Of a stretch of 21,312 nucleotides of DNA, positions 2,779 to 13,500 are shown piece after piece. Each line of letters begins with the position of its first letter. Position 1 is the first letter of the stretch. The DNA lies in UHGV virus genome UHGV-1468037; one strand, 5' to 3'. The DNA is from a virus. The translations under genes were made by a program, and so were the position numbers. The notes under the pieces are model-generated. The model made no database searches. It saw nothing but the letters and a program-made list of their open reading frames with translations, and was not told where the DNA came from.

Positions 2779-3178
2779 CGTCTTTTCTCCCCGGAATTAA
2801 CTCGCGTGGATTATCGGAACGGTGATAGAGCCAGATCCCAATTCGCACAGCGACGATTGCTGACACAAATGCACCGGCAGAGAAAACAATCCCTTTCTCG
2901 AAAGAATCCTGTGTGATTGTAGGGATCAGGCTGGCTATGCCGATAAGAATTGATGCTGCTGGTTTGTAGAATAGAAGTCCGCAGAGAAAGCTAAGCATCG
3001 ACAAGAGCACGCGACGACGAATGGGATACTCTACCGCAGAGGTAACAAAAATCACCGCCCCAGCCAAAGACCCCAAAGCAACCTCAGGAGGAACTCCTGC
3101 TATCACTGCCGCCAAAGAACTCATGCTAAGCCACTGATTTAAAGTTTCACTGGTTAGTTGAGCTGACATGTTTTCCAC
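2765..3178 (-). CDS. Multi-TM membrane protein of lysis cassette (holin candidate)
   Basis: 137 aa with about 4 predicted TM segments. First gene of the lysis cluster, downstream of an AT-rich intergenic region. Confidence 0.55.
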   Translation of the reverse strand: MENMSAQLTSETLNQWLSMSSLAAVIAGVPPEVALGSLAGAVIFVTSAVEYPIRRRVLLSMLSFLCGLLFYKPAASILIGIASLIPTITQDSFEKGIVFSAGAFVSAIVAVRIGIWLYHRSDNPRELIPGRKDDGNS

Positions 3179-3535
3179 CGTTTATATGCATAACTACCTC
3201 CTGAACAGTAAAGCATTACGCATGATAAACCATTTATGGTTTTTTGTTACCCAATATTACCAATCCAATTCGCGATGGTCAAAACATATCCACAGCGGTA
3301 AGTTTGAGTGTTTTCATTTCCAAAACTTTATACAATAATATATGCAGTCTGTTATTTTTACGCACAATAAAAACACGATACCAGCTATTTCGCCATAAAT
3401 ACAATTTCCTTTAATGCTGCCAACAGTGCCTGCAAAACATATAACAGAACACATAAATAACAGGCATAATATAGATTTAATAATCTAAGTGCATATAAAT
3501 ATCATTTAAGAAGTTAAGAGCATTATTATAATAAC

Positions 3536-6654: not shown

Positions 6655-6671
6655 ATTACCTTTCGGGTAAT
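6655..6671. promoter_or_regulatory. Dyad motif copy 1 (ATTACC TTTCG GGTAAT)
   Basis: Perfect inverted half-sites TTACC/GGTAA with 5-bp spacer; one of four copies in the island; 76 bp upstream of the 85 aa gene. Confidence 0.5.
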
Positions 6672-6746: not shown

Positions 6747-7004
6747 ATGCAGCAGTATCACTATCCACTGGAAGACGGATTTACCGAAAGGATTCACACG
6801 CCGGGAGGCGTCAGGTCACTGGTGGAGGGATCGCACTTGATGAAATTACTCCGGGATCTCGATAAGGATGGATTTAATGTCGATGGCCCACTTGCCGAAC
6901 TGACTGCACTGATTAACTACGTCACCAGCTCACAGATGTCTATGCGGGATCTGCAAACACATCTCGACTATTGTGCCGAACAATTACGAAAACAAACCCG
7001 GTAA
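6747..7004 (+). CDS. Small antirepressor-like protein; standalone paralog of the C-terminal domain of the downstream Ant-like protein
   Basis: 85 aa from ATG 6747 (GGAGA RBS). The upstream part of ORF 6624..7004 is rejected because it contains the LexA box and dyad site. Aligns by eye with the Ant-like C-terminus (LM.LL..L..DG..V.G..AELT ... RD.QTH..Y). Confidence 0.65.
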   Translation: MQQYHYPLEDGFTERIHTPGGVRSLVEGSHLMKLLRDLDKDGFNVDGPLAELTALINYVTSSQMSMRDLQTHLDYCAEQLRKQTR

Positions 7005-7010
7005 ATTTAA

Positions 7011-7028
7011 AGGCCGCAAGAGCGGCCT
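7011..7028. terminator. Bidirectional terminator between convergent genes
   Basis: Stem AGGCCGC / GCGGCCT with loop AAGA, T-rich on the plus side and A-rich before. Overlaps the stop codon of the minus-strand 242 aa gene. Confidence 0.55.
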
Positions 7029-7755
7029 ATCGTTTCGCTTTGTGCTCATCCCAGCACGTTTTGCACCATGCCATTAAGCCGTCCGCATTTTGATTATTAG
7101 GGTAAAAGCTGGTTCGTTTTCTGCGGACATTACAAATTGGGCACCACTTCATATGGCGTGTATTCTTTGGGCCATCGAGACACCTTGCACACCATTTAGT
7201 CAATCCATCTGGATTTTTTGACGATTTCCTGAATTTTTCATATGGAAGGTTTATTCTGCATCGCAAGCACTGCTTGCTACCACTTGAAACTCTGTTAGCT
7301 GATTCTTCTTTTGGCAGCGATACAGAAGGTATTCTTGCTGGCTCTGATATTGCCTGAGGTGCTTTTTTAGATGACTGAGACGATATGTCATCACCAGGGA
7401 ATCTTCCATGATATGCCGGACGCGTTGACACTCCAGGTGGAATCTCAGCTGTAAACGGCTTTGGCTGAATCAGTTGCCTCTCTTTTGCTAACTCCTGCTG
7501 TTTATAATATGTCTGGATTACCGCACTATCATAAGCAGGAGGTGCGGAAATATTAGGCGCATTACCTCCAGTTTTTTGAAACTGAGTAGAGGTGTGTTCT
7601 ATCACCTGTGTACGATTAATCGTTATCTCCCCATCTTCGGTCTTTATCGTTTTGTTATGATTAACGACCGTACGATCAGAGATCTTAGTCTTGTTCTGGT
7701 TGATAACGTAAATAATCACCGCAACCACACCAACAACTATCCAGAAAACTTCCAT
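7027..7755 (-). CDS. Membrane-anchored protein with two C-terminal zinc-ribbon (CxxC-N19/20-WCxxC) motifs; function unknown
   Basis: 242 aa. N-terminal TM helix (VFWIVVGVVAVIIYVI) followed by basic residues. Low-complexity linker. Two repeats: CLRC...WCARC and CPIC...WCKTC, in a basic context. GAGGA RBS. Divergent from the ant-like gene. Confidence 0.7.
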   Translation of the reverse strand: MEVFWIVVGVVAVIIYVINQNKTKISDRTVVNHNKTIKTEDGEITINRTQVIEHTSTQFQKTGGNAPNISAPPAYDSAVIQTYYKQQELAKERQLIQPKPFTAEIPPGVSTRPAYHGRFPGDDISSQSSKKAPQAISEPARIPSVSLPKEESANRVSSGSKQCLRCRINLPYEKFRKSSKNPDGLTKWCARCLDGPKNTRHMKWCPICNVRRKRTSFYPNNQNADGLMAWCKTCWDEHKAKR

Positions 7756-7774
7756 TGCTTTTCCTCACAATAAC

Positions 7775-7791
7775 ATTACCTTAAAGGTAAT
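7775..7791. promoter_or_regulatory. Dyad motif copy 2 (ATTACC TTAAA GGTAAT)
   Basis: Perfect 17-bp palindrome in the 5' UTR of the 242 aa gene, about 20 nt from its start codon, and at the far end of the ant-like leader. Confidence 0.5.
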
Positions 7792-7867
7792 ATCTTGCTT
7801 TCAGGTGATCAAGCGTTAAACGCAATCAACCAAATACGGTTGATTTTAATGTTTCTTCGCGCTTATC

Positions 7868-7884
7868 ATTACCTTTACGGTAAA
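7868..7884. promoter_or_regulatory. Dyad motif copy 3 (ATTACC TTTAC GGTAAA)
   Basis: Same TTACC-N5-GGTAA architecture, in the divergent intergenic region between the 242 aa gene and the ant-like gene. Confidence 0.45.
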
Positions 7885-7918
7885 TTTACATTGCACTCCT
7901 CTTGTGCCATAGTAATCG

Positions 7919-8049
7919 GGCACTGGCAAAATCCAGTGCCGGGATTGGCGTCCCGGATTACTACAGAGGCACATATGCCGCATAAGCGGTTTTTTTATGT
8001 GTAAAGCGCACCTATTCTATGGTGGGCTGTGTGGGGGCACCGAAAGGTG
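7919..8049 (+). promoter_or_regulatory. Structured leader upstream of ant-like gene (multiple hairpins including a terminator-like hairpin plus T7 run)
   Basis: Hairpins GGCACTGG/CCAGTGCC (7919-7940) and CCGGGA/TCCCGG (7939-7956) overlap and are mutually exclusive. CCGC-ATAA-GCGG followed by TTTTTTT (7978-7996). GCACC-GAAA-GGTGC (8037-8049). Confidence 0.4.
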
Positions 8050-8149
8050 CGCCGGGTCCTTTGTAGCCGGTTACGCCAACCCTGCACAGTTCACCACCAA
8101 CCGATTGGCGTCGGTAGTGGTGATTAACCTAACTACAAAGGTGATCACT

Positions 8150-8836
8150 ATGACTGCTAACGTAACCCCATCTGTTTTTCATTTTGAATCAGAAGCAACC
8201 ATTCGAGCCATTGTTATTGATGGAAATCCTTGGTTTGTTGCCAAAGACGTTATTAAAGCTCTTCAACTGACAAACCCCACTATGTCAATAAAATCTCTTG
8301 ATGATGATGAAAGGGCTAAATTTAACTTAGGCCGTCAAGGCGAAACCAATATTATCAACGAGTCAGGCCTCTACACACTGATCCTCCGCTGCCGCGACGC
8401 AGTGACACCAGGCACTATCCCCTACCGCTTTCGCAAATGGGTTACAGGTGAGGTTCTTCCTCAGATCCGCCGCACCGGAAGCTACATTAAAAACTCGCTC
8501 CCGCAGGAAGAGCGCATAAAGATGGTTGCCGACCAGGTAGCCAACGCCACGGCGTCAGCAGTAATGCAGGCGATGAAGATAGAGAACAAAACCTACAGTG
8601 CCCCACTGAAGCCAGGCTACCGCAGTCTGATTCATTCGCCGTCGGGTGTTCTCGGCCTGACGGAGAACTCATTGCTGATGAATCTGCTGAATCAGTTGCA
8701 GGACGACGGGCATGATGTATCGGGCGCGGCGGCGGAACTGACCACCATGTTCTGCTACATCGTCGGTGTGAGCAAATGCCTGCGTGATATCCAGACGCAC
8801 GCGGAGTACATCAACGACAAGGCAGGGTTCTTCTGA
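8150..8836 (+). CDS. Antirepressor-like protein with N-terminal BRO-N domain and C-terminal antirepressor-type domain
   Basis: 228 aa from ATG 8150 (AAGG 8 nt upstream). N-terminus matches the BRO-N pattern (IDGNPWFVAKDV...INESGLYTLIL...FRKWVTGEVLPQIRRTGSY). The longer ORF from 7997 would include the hairpin leader and lacks an RBS. Confidence 0.75.
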   Translation: MTANVTPSVFHFESEATIRAIVIDGNPWFVAKDVIKALQLTNPTMSIKSLDDDERAKFNLGRQGETNIINESGLYTLILRCRDAVTPGTIPYRFRKWVTGEVLPQIRRTGSYIKNSLPQEERIKMVADQVANATASAVMQAMKIENKTYSAPLKPGYRSLIHSPSGVLGLTENSLLMNLLNQLQDDGHDVSGAAAELTTMFCYIVGVSKCLRDIQTHAEYINDKAGFF

Positions 8837-8845
8837 CAGAACGGC

Positions 8846-8868
8846 GGCACAGGGATGTGCCTTTAAAT
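8846..8868 (+). terminator. Weak terminator-like hairpin after ant-like gene
   Basis: GGCACA-GGGA-TGTGCC followed by TTTAAATAATT. The T-run is short, so termination is probably partial. Confidence 0.3.
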
Positions 8869-8908
8869 AATTCTGTACAGATTGCAGACTGTGGGTGAAT
8901 AGCGTACT

Positions 8909-8925
8909 ATTACCTTAAAGGTAAA
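8909..8925. promoter_or_regulatory. Dyad motif copy 4 (ATTACC TTAAA GGTAAA)
   Basis: Core identical to copy 2. Abuts the Shine-Dalgarno AAGGAGG of the 55 aa gene. Confidence 0.5.
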
Positions 8926-8936
8926 GGAGGCGCGAT

Positions 8937-9104
8937 ATGACAGCGTTGAAAAATCGTACTCAGCACAATGAACAAGCCAAGCAATGCTGGGATGTCATTG
9001 GAAAAGTTATGCTTGGCCGCGCAAGCAAAGAGCGCGACAAGGATATGGTTTACCAGACAGGAACATCTTTCAGCGACTTCAAGGCGGCATTTCGCTCCAA
9101 ATAG
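8937..9104 (+). CDS. Small basic protein (55 aa), unknown function
   Basis: Not in the ORF track (<60 aa). ATG 8937 is preceded by a consensus SD AAGGAGG with 6-nt spacing. Translated by hand: MTALKNRTQHNEQAKQCWDVIGKVMLGRASKERDKDMVYQTGTSFSDFKAAFRSK. TAG stop at 9102-9104. Confidence 0.55.
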   Translation: MTALKNRTQHNEQAKQCWDVIGKVMLGRASKERDKDMVYQTGTSFSDFKAAFRSK

Positions 9105-9124
9105 AAGCACATTAGGAGTTTGTC

Positions 9125-9565
9125 TTGAAGTTTAACATTAGAATATCTAATAGTTTTCTAAATGGGGAAAGCAACACCCCTTTCGCTGTAGACGGACCTT
9201 TCCTTACTGACGATGAAATAAAAATCATACAAAGGTTTTTAGAAGATGTTGCCAATGGAAGGGCGCTTGTTGGAAAAAACAAGCCATCGTGGGTTGATGA
9301 TAACCATGATAAAATTCCCGGCTCAGACAATTATGAGCAAGAGAATTATTGGCATTATCATTGTGGGCCAACATGGTATCCAAACACATTTAAGAATTAT
9401 ACCATTAACTTAAATTTCAACCCTGGCGGAATGCATTCTAATGAATGCATTCATTATGCAAAAAATGATAATGAAATTGTCGTTGTTGGATTTTCAAGAG
9501 AACACATACCTTTCCTTTCATCAGATGGAAACGACAATCCGCTTTTTTATGATGAAGAAGAATAG
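9125..9565 (+). CDS. Hypothetical protein (146 aa) with acidic C-terminus, unknown function
   Basis: TTG start with AGGAG 6 nt upstream; 20 nt after the stop of the 55 aa gene, so probably an operon. Strongly AT-rich codon usage. No signal peptide. Followed by a strong terminator. Confidence 0.6.
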   Translation: MKFNIRISNSFLNGESNTPFAVDGPFLTDDEIKIIQRFLEDVANGRALVGKNKPSWVDDNHDKIPGSDNYEQENYWHYHCGPTWYPNTFKNYTINLNFNPGGMHSNECIHYAKNDNEIVVVGFSREHIPFLSSDGNDNPLFYDEEE

Positions 9566-9588
9566 CCCGCGGCGCGGGCTTTTTTGTG
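9564..9588 (+). terminator. Rho-independent terminator after the 146 aa gene
   Basis: Stem AGCCCGC / GCGGGCT with a 3-nt loop, followed by TTTTT. Confidence 0.75.
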
Positions 9589-9625
9589 TCTGCGGATTCC
9601 CACCCAGGCGGCGGTGGCATTCGTT

Positions 9626-9650
9626 AAAAACAAGGCCGCGAAAGCGGCCT
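9626..9650 (-). terminator. Rho-independent terminator after the 283 aa minus-strand gene
   Basis: Stem AGGCCGC / GCGGCCT with loop GAAA; the plus-strand A-run (9626-9630) gives a T-run on the minus strand. Same stem sequence as the hairpin at 7011-7028. Confidence 0.6.
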
Positions 9651-9656
9651 GTTTGA

Positions 9657-10508
9657 TCACTGTGCAGTTTTCGCTGATCGATTTTCAGCTCTAAATTCAA
9701 GAACCGTTTCAATATTTCTTTCCTTCAGCATATCAATAACATTTTTATTCATTTGACTATCACTGGTTAATAACTGGTAAACGTTGCTTCTCTCTTTATC
9801 AGAGTTTTCTTTAACAGCTGCTTTGCATGCCAAATGCTTATTGAAATTTTCTACATCGCTAGTACAGGAATTTACGGCTGCTGATGAAATATCAGACGCT
9901 GAAGAAACACCGTCATCCAAACGTTTTATAGCATTTTCTATACATGAGTTAAGGGAATAAACGACAACTGAGCGATACCCTTCAGACGCACACCATTCTA
10001 AATTTCTTGAAGGATCGAGTGGTTTTACTTCGCTGGATTGAATTAACTTGTCAAAAACTGACTTATATTCAATCTGTTTTTTATCTATAGCCCATACTTC
10101 AGTAGCTGATTTATAATTCCCCGTATGCCTATTAACATCAAATCCATGTTTTATAAGCAAATCTGCCCATGAAAGATTTATTGATTCATTGTTATGAGGC
10201 CATTTTCCTGTCAGAACCGCCCCCATAGACCCCATATATCCGCCATATGATGGTATAGCACCATGGCTCAGTAACTTCTCTGCAACCACAGGGCAATTAA
10301 TTACATAAGAGGCGTAAAGCCCATTCCATAAAGCCCCTCTATAGTAATCGCCACGATTAGGTTCTTTTAAGTCGATAGCCTTTGATAATTGTTCGCACGT
10401 TTTGCATGCATCAAAGTTATCCTTATTGCATTGCAATGAACTGGCAGCTGTAGGATTTACAGAGACTATTGAAAGCACTATGCCAAAAAACAAATTTATT
10501 TTTTTCAT
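9657..10508 (-). CDS. Secreted cysteine-rich protein (283 aa), unknown function; accessory (moron) gene
   Basis: Sec-type signal peptide MKKINLFFGIVLSIVSVNPTAAS. Many Cys in the mature part. AT-rich codon usage unlike the neighbouring virion genes. Start codon 1 nt after the stop of the 1129 aa gene, so likely translationally coupled. Confidence 0.7.
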   Translation of the reverse strand: MKKINLFFGIVLSIVSVNPTAASSLQCNKDNFDACKTCEQLSKAIDLKEPNRGDYYRGALWNGLYASYVINCPVVAEKLLSHGAIPSYGGYMGSMGAVLTGKWPHNNESINLSWADLLIKHGFDVNRHTGNYKSATEVWAIDKKQIEYKSVFDKLIQSSEVKPLDPSRNLEWCASEGYRSVVVYSLNSCIENAIKRLDDGVSSASDISSAAVNSCTSDVENFNKHLACKAAVKENSDKERSNVYQLLTSDSQMNKNVIDMLKERNIETVLEFRAENRSAKTAQ

Positions 10509-10509
10509 C

Positions 10510-13500
10510 CTATTTCATCTGCTCTTCAACTTTATTTAGTAATGGTGATATCGCCCACAGATTCTGAAAAGGTAGCATTTTACGGACAGCGTGGGTTTGC
10601 TGGCTGTCAAATTCTCCGTTAAGTACACCATTTGCAACCGTCGCGGCATCACCGCCAAGATCAAAGGTAGGACCAAGTAAAGCACCAATAGCATTACGAC
10701 TCTGAAACCTTGATACCGGAGGCGCACCAAACATCGCGCCAAGACCAAACCTACCGCCGCTTATGTTCTCAACGGTATTCAGCGGCTCAGAGAGCCAGCC
10801 AAGCATTCCGCCCCGGTCGATCCCCTCTTTCACAAGGTTATTCCAGCTGTAGTCGATATCGCGACCGCTTAACTTCTGTTTCATCATATAGACCATTGAG
10901 CCAAGCGCAATCGTGCCAAGCGCACCAAGATAGAATGCAGCATCGCCCTGCTGGATACCAGATACCAGCACCCTGTTATGCTGTGCGAAGATAAACGTTT
11001 TGAACTGCGTGATCATCTTCCAGCCTTCTTTACTAAAAAACAGCGGTGTATCACCTACGCCAGGCGTTACAATCACTGAGTCTACATCTTTCAGCACTGC
11101 AGACTGGAAAATCTCTCTAGCGAAACGGTCATCCCACAGATGACTATGCCCGGTTAACAGCCCGTCCATATCCTCTCCGTGCTTCCCGAATTGCTCCCCG
11201 ATTCGGCGCAGAACATCTTCATTGATGCCGACCTGTGCCATCTTCCGCATTTCACTTTTGGAGAGCGTGCCACCAGCAGAAACTTGGCGAGCCGCGTCAA
11301 GTATCCTCGACTGCACTATCATCCCAGACCATGATTTAAGTGCGCTGTTCCACTGATTCATCAGCGTCCAGTTACCGAATTTCTGCGTCATCCAGTTCAG
11401 ACCTCGCTCAGCGGCGCTTCTCCGGCTATAGGGGTCAGTAAGATCCGCTATAGCCTTTGTACGCGTAGACAGGACATAATCAAGCCCAACTGCCATTTCT
11501 CGCAAATCCCTGGTTGCAATTTTCACTGAGTCCATATTTTTAAGCATGCTTACCATTGGTCCGAGAGATTTTCTCAGGCCATGCTGCATCATCGGTCGCA
11601 TCAGATCAGTTGCAGCGGAGACAGTCATTCCACCAAGCAAACGGAGGAAGTTAATATTCCTAGCAACTCGCCCGGCACGAACAAAGAAACTGCGTGGATC
11701 TTGAGGTGCACCGTAAGTACCAAGCAGTCGATCACGCATAGCCGTAATATCCCTAATATCAGCCTCCCGTTGCTTCTCAAGAACTGCACGTCGTTTAGGT
11801 GTTTTAGCCTCTTTTATTAGCCGGGTATATTCCTCACTAACCTGACGGATTTGCTCCCCCATATCTTTACGGCCAAACTGCGCAGTCAGCTCAATTTCTG
11901 GTGCCACCTGCCGGAGATAACTTTCCATGATGTAGTTAACATCTGATTCAAGAAAATCTTCTATACGCTCATCAGGAATAAGCAGCGTTCTGCTTTTAGT
12001 GAAACCAGCCCGACCAACGAGTCTCTCTGGGATAATATCGGCTGGTACAAGCCCGGAAGGTGCGCCTATTATTTTATTCACGATCTCGTCAGCAGCGTCC
12101 TCTGCTTCCTCTCGGGATAGAGGCTCCATCTGCTTCAGTGCTCGCTCGCGGCTTGCATTCAGCCTTGTGGTTGAATTTGCCCGTTTTTGCAGTCGGCGAA
12201 GCTCAGAACGATATTTCCGTGGATTATCCAGCAACTCCATATGGCGCTGATAGACAGGAAGCTCACTCTTTGCCTGCGCTATATCATCAAGGCGTGTTTT
12301 AAGGTCAGAGCTTTCTTTCATCATTCTTGCCTGAAGTTTTTCTGATGAAGTCTCGGCCAACTCTTTTTCTATTCTTGTAAGACGCGCCTGTGTGTCAGTC
12401 TCCTGAGATATAAGCTTATTTCGTTTATCCAGTTCTTCCATGAGTAGAATTTTTTTACCAGACCATTTCTCCGCTTCAGCGATTTCACTAGCGAGAGCAT
12501 CAGCGCGCGGTGCTGATTCCTCTGCAGTTTTTAGCAATGAATTTATCTTTTCAATTCGCTGACCTGCTTTGTCAGCACCTTTGGCACTAATCCCTTGTAT
12601 CCAGTTGGCAATTCGCCCTCTGAATTCAGTGCGGTCGGAAAGTATCTTATCGAACTTATAAATGCGGGGAAGATAACTCTTCGCCGTCACGACATCGATA
12701 TCCTCAGGAAGGATCCCCAATTCCTGCATACGGGCTTTTGTGGTCTCAAAAATGGGGCGGATTCTGGCGGCTGCTTGTGAAACCTCAGGAATATCACTCT
12801 GATCACCACGGCGCATAGCCATGCCAACAGCTTCATTGAAATCAATAAAGTTCATCCTCTTCACGCCGCGGGCGCTGACAGATTTGCTGTACTGCTGGTA
12901 AGCATCACGAGTAGCTTCCATCTGCTTATAAAGCATGGCGTCGTATTGCTTAATCTTAGTCTCGACTGCCGTAAACGTAGCCAACCCCTCATCATTTTTG
13001 GCGAAGAAATAGTTATTTTCGGCAAGCTGCTGGTTAATCTGACGGGAGACAAGAGATGGTGATTGCGCCAAGCGGCCAGCAGGAGTGACACTCAACGTTT
13101 TGTTAGCAAGTCCAAGTCCAGCGAGCTGTTCCTGATCGAGTGTGGTATTGAAAACCTGAGCTGCACCAATGCTTTGAGGAGAATCCATACCTCGCAAATG
13201 ATTACCTACTGAGTTAACCACTGCCTCGCGCGCGCTAGGTCCAGCAAGTAGCTGTGCACCAGCACCAAGGATCCCACCAACGAGAGCATCAACAACAACG
13301 TTCGATACGCTCTCCATCGGTGAGCGAGCTTCCTGAGTGGCCTGTAATGCGGCTTCTGATACTCCCCCACCAGCAGCATTCGCCAGGGCAAAACGCCCTG
13401 CCGTCTCAGCAATACTTCCTCCACGCGCTACCGCCCCTACAGGGATGAACATTGCAGCCACATTAACCGGGTCTATCATTCCCATTGCTAAGCTTGAAAT

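Follow-up and report, generated by a model that had tools for sequence, protein, structure and literature searches.

A candidate RelE/YafO-like toxin-antitoxin pair in a cargo-swapping slot of Uetakevirus prophages

The stretch of DNA analysed here (the window) is the 21,312-nucleotide (nt) virus genome UHGV-1468037, which is identified by megablast as a Uetakevirus (phiV10/epsilon15-like) prophage of Escherichia coli; in strain SCU-101 this prophage adjoins yfgI. The subject is a pair of small open reading frames (ORFs), ORF55 and ORF146, which follow the Bro-N antirepressor gene (ant) on the plus strand and are themselves followed by a terminator, after which come the convergent late and injection genes of the minus strand. 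A toxin-antitoxin cassette is the most likely reading of the two genes, because the larger protein is predicted to be RelE/YafO-like and the pair always occurs together.

The two-gene cassette and its conservation

The cassette comprises the following features, given with their coordinates in the window, their strand, protein lengths in amino acids (aa), isoelectric points (pI) and Shine-Dalgarno (SD) sequences.

8838..9606, plus strand: whole cassette, the block missing from phiV10, between the ant stop codon and the convergent late-gene terminator
8882..8910, plus strand: putative sigma-70-type promoter, with -35 TTGCAG (8882-8887), a 17-nt spacer and -10 TACTAT (8905-8910)
8910..8924, no strand: putative operator dyad TTACCTT-A-AAGGTAA (TTACCTTAAAGGTAA), which overlaps the -10/+1 region and abuts the ORF55 SD
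8924..8930, plus strand: SD AAGGAGG of ORF55, 6 nt before the ATG at 8937
8937..9104, plus strand: ORF55, proposed antitoxin; 55 aa, basic, pI 9.80; WP_000125783.1, phrog_8607
9105-9124, plus strand: gap of 20 nt between the ORF55 stop and ORF146
9114..9118, plus strand: SD AGGAG of ORF146, 6 nt before the TTG at 9125
9125..9565, plus strand: ORF146, proposed endoribonuclease toxin; 146 aa, TTG start, pI 4.73, ends ...FYDEEE; WP_000671199.1, phrog_5954
9564..9586, plus strand: intrinsic terminator; hairpin AGCCCGCGGCGCGGGCT (9564-9580) with a 7-bp G+C stem and a 3-nt loop, then T6

The original prediction, made from the letters of the window alone, had described an operon of a small basic protein and a larger acidic-tailed protein. 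The two-gene operon reading holds, and both SD sequences, both ORFs, the 20-nt gap, the TTG start, the ...FYDEEE end, the terminator and the abutting dyad are all found where they had been placed. The TTG codon is taken as the start of ORF146 because the first in-frame methionine is reached only at residue 103 and the N-terminus is common to homologues. The GC content of ORF146 is 35.6%, against 46.6% for the whole window. The terminator hairpin was found by a terminator scan and has a centroid fold of -12.5 kcal/mol. The description of the 55-aa ORF as unannotated was mistaken as far as RefSeq is concerned, where ORF55 (WP_000125783.1) and ORF146 are both already present as hypothetical proteins; both PHROGs (8607 and 5954) are of unknown function, and the GenBank record of phiv142-3 alone omits the TTG-started 146-aa gene.

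A 192-bp insertion is found at the junction 9588/9589, after the terminator, in phiv142-3, TL-2011b and several E. coli genomes, and is absent from the window. The inserted sequence (6832-7023 of locus L002) encodes a 53-aa signal-peptide protein (MKKAFAALFVLLSLVASTQAFAGRCQHDSD...) that is elsewhere annotated as a ‘transmembrane anchored protein’. A disruption of the 146-aa gene in phiv142-3-type genomes, suggested by a two-piece match, was considered and rejected: the gene is intact, and the extra 192 bp lie after the terminator.

Homologues of ORF55 with 80-98% identity are present in Enterobacteriaceae. More distant homologues of the large gene occur in Pectobacterium, Erwinia and Proteus (59%, 57% and 47% identical to ORF146), and their upstream partners of 56, 58 and 62 aa are 47%, 36% and 24% identical to ORF55, respectively. 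Comparison with diverged homologues gives a ratio of nonsynonymous to synonymous substitution rates (dN/dS) of 0.13-0.16 for ORF55 and 0.04-0.12 for ORF146, which indicates purifying selection on both. Given these low ratios and the retention of the pair across genera, ORF55 and ORF146 are genuine genes and not chance ORFs.

The association of the two genes was evaluated on a collection of 19 genomic and 76 viral loci (IMG/VR contigs), and a co-directional ORF ends between -22 and +37 nt upstream of the large gene in all ~104 loci, whether these are on phages, on chromosomes or on plasmid-like contigs. A hidden Markov model (HMM) of the ORF55 family, iterated four times and run over 8114 ORFs, retrieves one ORF per locus in 99 loci, which is always the upstream neighbour, and nothing else below E = 0.01. 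The un-iterated model already detects the Haemophilus partners with E-values of 1.7e-5 to 4e-4 (2113 ORFs). The pair is found in Uetakevirus prophages of E. coli and Pectobacterium, on an Erwinia chromosome, where the two genes stand by themselves between accA and core genes and no phage genes are nearby, on a Proteus contig with a DnaD_N/HTH_36 replication gene, and in the tail region of Pasteurellaceae prophages. The pair is thus mobilised and inherited as a unit in at least four unrelated genomic contexts. In the loci from Pasteurellaceae, Kingella and Neisseria (L015-L029 and L078-L108), the cassette lies in the prophage tail region before a gpV-like baseplate gene, and in one such genome it comes after a 2935-aa MuF/ART polyvalent protein.

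The partner gene varies in length. In Pasteurellaceae it encodes 159-211 aa, of which the C-terminal 55 residues form the ORF55-like sequence, and overall the ORF55 domain is the C-terminal tail of proteins of 99-211 aa. Because the ORF55-like sequence is the C-terminal end of the long Pasteurellaceae partners, ORF55 is a conserved partner domain in its smallest form. An N-proximal hydrophobic segment (Kyte-Doolittle mean of 1.5-2.0 over 17 residues), which resembles a signal peptide or membrane anchor, is also present in the long partners of Pasteurellaceae and Neisseriaceae. A Pfam scan of the long partners for DNA-binding domains found none. The AlphaFold2 model of ORF55 itself consists of a helix at residues 2-36 and a second at 45-53, with a predicted local distance difference test score (pLDDT) of 71.6 and a predicted template modelling score (pTM) of 0.35; such a model, together with the lack of a match to any DNA-binding family, is as would be expected of a peptide that folds on its partner.

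The two genes also differ in how they decay and how they are translated. The large gene is frameshifted or truncated with its partner intact in Canicola (L020, L074 and L076), in a Neisseria metagenome-assembled genome (L030) and in locus L107, and no intact large gene without an upstream partner was seen among the ~104 loci. All 12 of the distinct enterobacterial variants of the large gene start with TTG or GTG. In the window, ORF146 has a modest SD and a TTG start, compared with the consensus SD and ATG of ORF55.

Predicted fold of ORF146 and relation to YafO

Neither protein had been recognisable to the original prediction, and database searches bear this out. There is no match for ORF146 or ORF55 in Pfam, NCBIfam or PADLOC (E <= 1), and PDB sequence searches with single sequences and with profiles return no match to either protein. 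The same is true of the wider family: a Pfam scan of 92 relatives of ORF146 gives scattered chance matches only and none to a RelE/ParE_toxin, YoeB, YafQ or HigB-type family. A Foldseek search against the BFVD viral structures returns nothing informative for ORF146. The family comprises 34 clusters in a collection of 5.8 billion sequences and has 116 representatives (50% identity) in a profile search of 1.84 billion proteins. The pI of its members ranges from 4.7 to 10.7; the acidic tail to which attention had been drawn is present in ORF146 and is not conserved beyond the close family.

Conserved positions were read from an alignment of 92 sequences that are 22-54% identical to ORF146 (alignment A3; the locus scan used another alignment, A1, as A3 is too divergent for scanning by pattern). 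Three histidines (H77, H79 and H127) are invariant in A3, and F11, G50, N52, K53, Y78, Y111 and F130 are nearly invariant.

The original prediction had also called for structure prediction, which yields a confident AlphaFold2 model of ORF146 (29-sequence alignment; pLDDT 90.7, pTM 0.86) with a RelE/ParE-superfamily fold. The order of elements is a strand, a helix, a long helix and strands at 75-79, 108-113 and 117-124, and this agrees with the compact alpha/beta fold of RelE/ParE proteins (N-terminal strand, two helices and an antiparallel sheet of three or four strands). Between 72 and 91 residues of the model are superposed on RelE-superfamily structures at 2.3-3.3 Å; the same proteins occupy the top ranks of a Foldseek search, in which the E-values are not significant. 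The model portrays ORF146 as a RelE-fold protein enlarged by three insertions at approximately residues 14-28, 45-74 and 80-107. The conserved residues fall on or next to strands beta-2, beta-3 and beta-4, with H77 and H79 on beta-2 and H127 just past the last strand. Histidines are catalytic residues in the RNase-branch toxins YafQ, HigB and YoeB and are not in ParE. Judged by secondary-structure position and established knowledge rather than by superposition, the invariant histidines of ORF146 would sit where RelE-type RNases carry their catalytic residues.

The pair therefore has to be compared with several known systems. With RelBE, YefM-YoeB, DinJ-YafQ, HigBA and BrnTA it shares the predicted core fold and an adjacent cognate partner gene. 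The candidate catalytic residues lie on beta-2, on beta-3 and after beta-4, and histidines would be used as in YafQ, HigB and YoeB. ORF146 differs from these interferases in being ~55-60 residues longer (the three insertions), in being acidic and not basic, and in having no sequence-profile similarity to them, and ORF55 lies outside the RelB, YefM, DinJ and HigA families.

The family closest to ORF146 in layout appears to be YafO. By eye, the ORF146 family and YafO share collinear motifs: L-x3-E-L-x2-L-x2-F in helix alpha-2, a G-[KR]-[ND] loop, an H-x-H strand, a T-S-x2-h-h-h-Y strand, and a final hydrophobic strand followed by His. The same motif alignment is produced by hhalign from alignment A3 and YafO alignments over 79-94 columns, with E-values of 0.012-0.019 and a probability of 2-4%. 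As controls, a reversed sequence gives E 0.28, and YafO against the TL-2011b protein (see below) reaches only E 2.8e-4, both of those alignments being shallow. Neither ORF146 nor any of the 92 relatives matches PF13957 (YafO_toxin), and a scan of the viral contigs with the YafO alignment gives no match. Membership of ORF146 in the YafO family is thus not demonstrated, and the likeness is known from sequence motifs and not from fold comparison, with no YafO chain among the PDB matches.

The resemblance to YafN-YafO extends to the organisation of the genes. In each case an operon of two genes opens with that of the small partner, YafO-type toxins are likewise larger than RelE (132-181 aa), and in sister prophages the very same promoter/terminator slot is filled by YafO-family pairs. 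Both also appear to be wired to a stress or derepression signal, as yafNO is under LexA control in the dinB operon of E. coli. The partners set the two systems apart: ORF55 is unrelated to the Phd/YefM-type YafN. A short resemblance was examined, in that YafN (1506-1799 of locus L011) ends in ...FNDFKE, ORF55 contains FSDFK (9067-9081) and the Haemophilus partners have FDDFK near their C-termini. A relationship of the ORF55 partner to YafN or to the small protein of TL-2011b was rejected, as it has no HMM support and the five-residue F-x-D-F-K match may be due to chance. The endoribonuclease YafO depends on the ribosome for its activity, makes its cuts 11-13 nt downstream of start codons and has been kept apart from RelE for want of structural information (PMC7180214).

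The slot after ant and its regulation

The position occupied by the cassette is empty in phiV10. In a blastn search with 7700-10599, the sequence corresponding to 7861-8837 is joined in phiV10 directly to that of 9607-9652, and 8838-9606 is absent. In TL-2011b the same position is filled differently. The 90 bp upstream are nearly base-identical, including TTGCAG, the 17-nt spacer, TACTAT and the dyad, and the stop codon and terminator are kept though the upstream gene differs. The cargo between them (2785-3484 of locus L013) consists of genes for 59 and 181 aa, and the larger product is accepted by the Pfam model YafO_toxin (E 8.1e-6; score 26.3 bits, gathering cutoff 25).

The exact promoter/dyad sequence is present in 37 viral contigs, which can be sorted by their cargo. 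The TL-2011b-type pair is complete in at least 19 of the 37 and cut off or frameshifted in 3 more, and 10 carry ORF55 and ORF146. A pair of 108 and 170 aa, whose large protein is YafO-like with a match (E 7e-4) that does not reach the threshold for acceptance, is found in three (L157, L174 and L177). One further contig has a pair of 69 and 288 aa with a membrane protein, and another has a single 210-aa gene (L158 and L169). At least five cargos and an empty state (phiV10, L012) are therefore found at the position after ant, which is a cargo-swapping site with a common promoter/operator and terminator. Two of the alternative cargos are recognisable by sequence as YafO-type toxin pairs, and no PADLOC model matches the 181-, 170-, 288- or 210-aa cargo proteins, nor any of the neighbours of ORF55 and ORF146. 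Of 5426 complete E. coli genomes, 491 have the flanking sequences and 77 (1.4%) the ORF55/ORF146 cargo, which is always whole.

Alternative and unrelated cargos between conserved flanks are also a feature of the P2/P4 prophage hotspots (Rousset et al. 2022, PMC9122126). The slot described here differs from these hotspots in that its flanks include a promoter/operator and a terminator, so that the cargos share one regulatory frame, and in that its cargos match no PADLOC model.

The regulatory DNA of the slot is almost invariant from the ant stop codon to the dyad in the window, TL-2011b and phiv142-3, despite the different cargo downstream. The promoter is weak: it agrees with 7 of 12 consensus positions by eye, and a consensus scan made no call. 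The dyad adjoins the operon as originally described, and it proves to be a phage-wide operator candidate and not a site of the module alone. When up to 3 mismatches are allowed, it has 10 matches in the window, where 0.55 are expected. Of the individual copies, those at 7776-7790 and 8910-8924 are exact and those at 7869-7883 and 6656-6670 are variants; three of the four are in register with a TAxxAT -10-like hexamer (TAACAT, TATCAT and TACTAT), and the 6656 copy is a poor fit. In the complete phiv142-3 genome (L182), the pattern TTACC-N5-GGTAA has 15 matches, with 0.63 expected. An HTH_3 repressor gene has two of these between itself and a cro-like gene and another two shortly after its end; the terminase, late and replication operons are preceded by further copies, and there are also copies at Pant and at the ORF55 promoter. 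A search for the dyad pattern in the Erwinia and Proteus loci found none, and the paper on vB_EcoP_ZX5 does not define operators. The dyad is most likely the operator of the prophage’s main repressor, to judge from where its copies lie. The possibility that it is ORF55’s own operator was rejected, as the dyad is spread over the whole phage genome. The module would then probably be repressed in the stable lysogen and expressed with the early genes. Because the terminator scan found no plus-strand terminator between ant and ORF55, the pair may also be read through from Pant.

Directly upstream of ant, the plus strand has two RNA matches at Rfam gathering level: the Hfq-binding RNA isrK at 7920-7996 (76.8 bits) and a C4 antisense RNA at 8015-8101 (79.5 bits). 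By analogy, isrK and C4 before ant would follow the logic of the P1 immI region, in which an antirepressor is under antisense control. The start of ant is probably the ATG at 8150, because the mechanically called 279-aa ORF (7997-8836) overlaps the isrK and C4 RNAs.

Three neighbouring genes may be described briefly. A 242-aa protein (7027-7755, minus strand), whose gene diverges from the Pant region with a dyad at the gene start, combines a transmembrane segment at the N-terminus with two CxxC zinc-ribbon repeats at the C-terminus; these repeats have matches to PHROGs of endonuclease VII, HNH and Lar-like type (E down to 9.5e-12). An 85-aa protein (6747-7004, plus strand) has a C-terminal half (…LMKLLRDLDKDGFNVDGPLAELTALINYV…DLQTHLDY) that is similar, by eye only, to the Ant C-terminus (…LMNLLNQLQDDGHDVSGAAAELTTMFCYI…DIQTHAEY), and it may be a truncated paralogue of Ant or a decoy. 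A 283-aa protein (9657-10508, minus strand; phrog_6118, unknown function) is encoded by an AT-rich gene (37% GC), has a signal-peptide-like N-terminus and has no match in Pfam, NCBIfam or PADLOC. This gene, which lies between the terminators and the injection-protein genes, appears to be a second accessory gene of foreign origin.

Interpretation and alternatives

The original prediction had ventured that the pair recalls toxin/antitoxin-like modules, and this hunch is supported by the RelE/ParE-superfamily fold predicted for ORF146, by strict pairing in ~100 loci and by the nature of the alternative cargos, in particular the YafO-family pair of a sister phage in the same regulatory frame. We consider it probable, short of confident, that the pair is a RelE/YafO-like type II toxin-antitoxin module of an unclassified family under the control of the phage repressor.

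In the mechanism that we infer, the block 8838-9606 acts as a self-contained accessory cassette of promoter/operator, two genes and terminator. ORF146 would be the toxin, with a predicted RelE/ParE-superfamily fold and long loop insertions. A metal-independent RNase site of acid-base type would be made up of His77, His79 and His127 with Lys53, Tyr111 and Phe130, and the enzyme would cut mRNA at or close to translating ribosomes, by analogy with RelE, YoeB, YafQ, HigB and YafO. ORF55 would be a helical antitoxin without a recognised DNA-binding family, whose conserved core V-x-L-x-R ... Y-x3-G-S-F-x-D-F-x2-A-F may bind ORF146 directly and mask its active site. Its consensus SD and ATG, against the weak TTG/GTG start of the toxin gene, would provide antitoxin in excess. 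Transcription would start at the weak promoter, with the phage-wide dyad lying over its -10/+1 region, and read-through from Pant is possible. The pair would accordingly be off with the early genes in a stable lysogen and on after derepression or infection, when it may play a role in conflicts between phages or between phage and host.

Several results weigh against this interpretation. No sequence-based method places ORF146 or ORF55 in a known toxin or antitoxin family, and at an HH-suite probability of 2-4% the profile match to YafO falls short of significance. The polarity of charge is opposite to that of classic RelBE, with an acidic ‘toxin’ and a basic ‘antitoxin’. Type II antitoxins typically have a DNA-binding domain and autoregulate, and ORF55 matches no DNA-binding family in Pfam or NCBIfam and gives no sign of autoregulation; such a domain is common in antitoxins and is not universal, as PaaA2 is without one. 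The signal-peptide- or anchor-like segment of the long partners is hard to reconcile with neutralisation in the cytoplasm. Finally, with a phage operator on its promoter the pair should be repressed in the lysogen, and addiction or defence modules are not usually regulated in this way.

It is mainly on account of this last point that one alternative is retained, as unlikely and still deserving of weight: ORF146 may be a phage early-function RNase or a host-takeover or anti-defence factor and no self-poisoning toxin, with ORF55 as its chaperone, specificity subunit or timer and not as an antidote on which the host's survival depends. With the promoter under an operator that is also found at Pant and at the repressor gene, expression would be expected in the lytic phase and not in the lysogen. 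The family is moreover overwhelmingly phage-borne (76 IMG/VR contigs) and has no PADLOC matches, and the acidic pI of ORF146 is atypical of ribosome-binding RelE toxins. This explanation does not account well for the Erwinia chromosome, which has the pair as a two-gene island without phage genes around it, and the same slot houses bona fide YafO-family toxin pairs. The decay of the large gene with its partner kept, and its conserved weak start codon, also fit a toxic product better than an early phage function.

A ParE-type module, in which ORF146 would poison DNA gyrase and ORF55 would be a minimal antitoxin like PaaA2, is improbable. ORF55 does resemble PaaA2 as a short two-helix protein without a DNA-binding domain, but three invariant histidines, as are presumed here on the sheet face, characterise the RNase branch and not ParE, and the motif layout agrees with YafO. 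The PaaR2-PaaA2-ParE2 system of E. coli O157 prophages differs in both respects that matter here: ParE2 is a ParE-type toxin without the histidine triad, and the operon has its own regulator gene, where the present pair would depend on the general phage repressor through a shared operator.

The original prediction had offered a regulator/effector pair as its other comparison, and this has gained no support. In such a pair ORF55 would be a small basic protein that binds DNA as a regulator, for instance at the dyad, and ORF146 would be an unrelated effector, as the pI of 9.8 and the position of the gene beside the dyad might suggest. We regard this as very improbable. The dyad is phage-wide, with about 13 copies over the phage genome, flanks an HTH repressor gene and is present where the slot has other cargo (TL-2011b; L157, L158 and L169), and none was found at the Erwinia and Proteus loci that carry the pair. 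ORF55 is itself predicted as one long, extended helix and one short helix (pTM 0.35), matches no DNA-binding family, and as a domain also forms the C-terminal tail of proteins of 99-211 aa. That the ORFs are non-functional passengers or chance ORFs, for which only the lack of database function calls speaks, is effectively refuted by dN/dS of 0.04-0.16, protein conservation down to 24-47% identity across bacterial families, the wholeness of the module in all 77 carriers among 5426 complete E. coli genomes and the confident structure prediction.

The toxin-antitoxin reading can be carried a step further, which we offer tentatively as possible and rather doubtful. The position after ant would be a repressor-gated ‘toxin slot’ of Uetakevirus, in which a new RelE-fold family, two YafO-like families and others interchange and are switched on with the antirepressor and early genes. 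The RNase would then be an induction-coupled weapon and not a classical addiction module, serving for host mRNA shut-off, as a commitment device or for the exclusion of competing phages. The ORF55 domain, a new module on this view, would serve to bind the toxin and would elsewhere be fused to signal-peptide or membrane-anchored proteins, and such fusions hint at envelope-sensing toxin release.

A literature search with the accessions, the PHROG identifiers, Uetakevirus toxins and YafO anti-phage hotspots found no description of the pair. The kind of toxin, RelE/YafO, is known; what is on balance likely to be new is a RelE/YafO-like toxin-antitoxin-like pair with a new partner domain and phage-repressor control. 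If this is true, a toxin family and an antitoxin domain are added that Pfam, NCBIfam and PADLOC models miss, and the ORF146 family, which is also present in many Pasteurellaceae prophages, would provide a structural bridge that could put YafO within the RelE superfamily. The slot beside ant is in addition a natural experiment, in which identical regulatory DNA is combined with different toxin cargos, apparently all under the phage repressor. It makes directly testable the questions of why temperate phages carry RNase toxins and when these toxins act.

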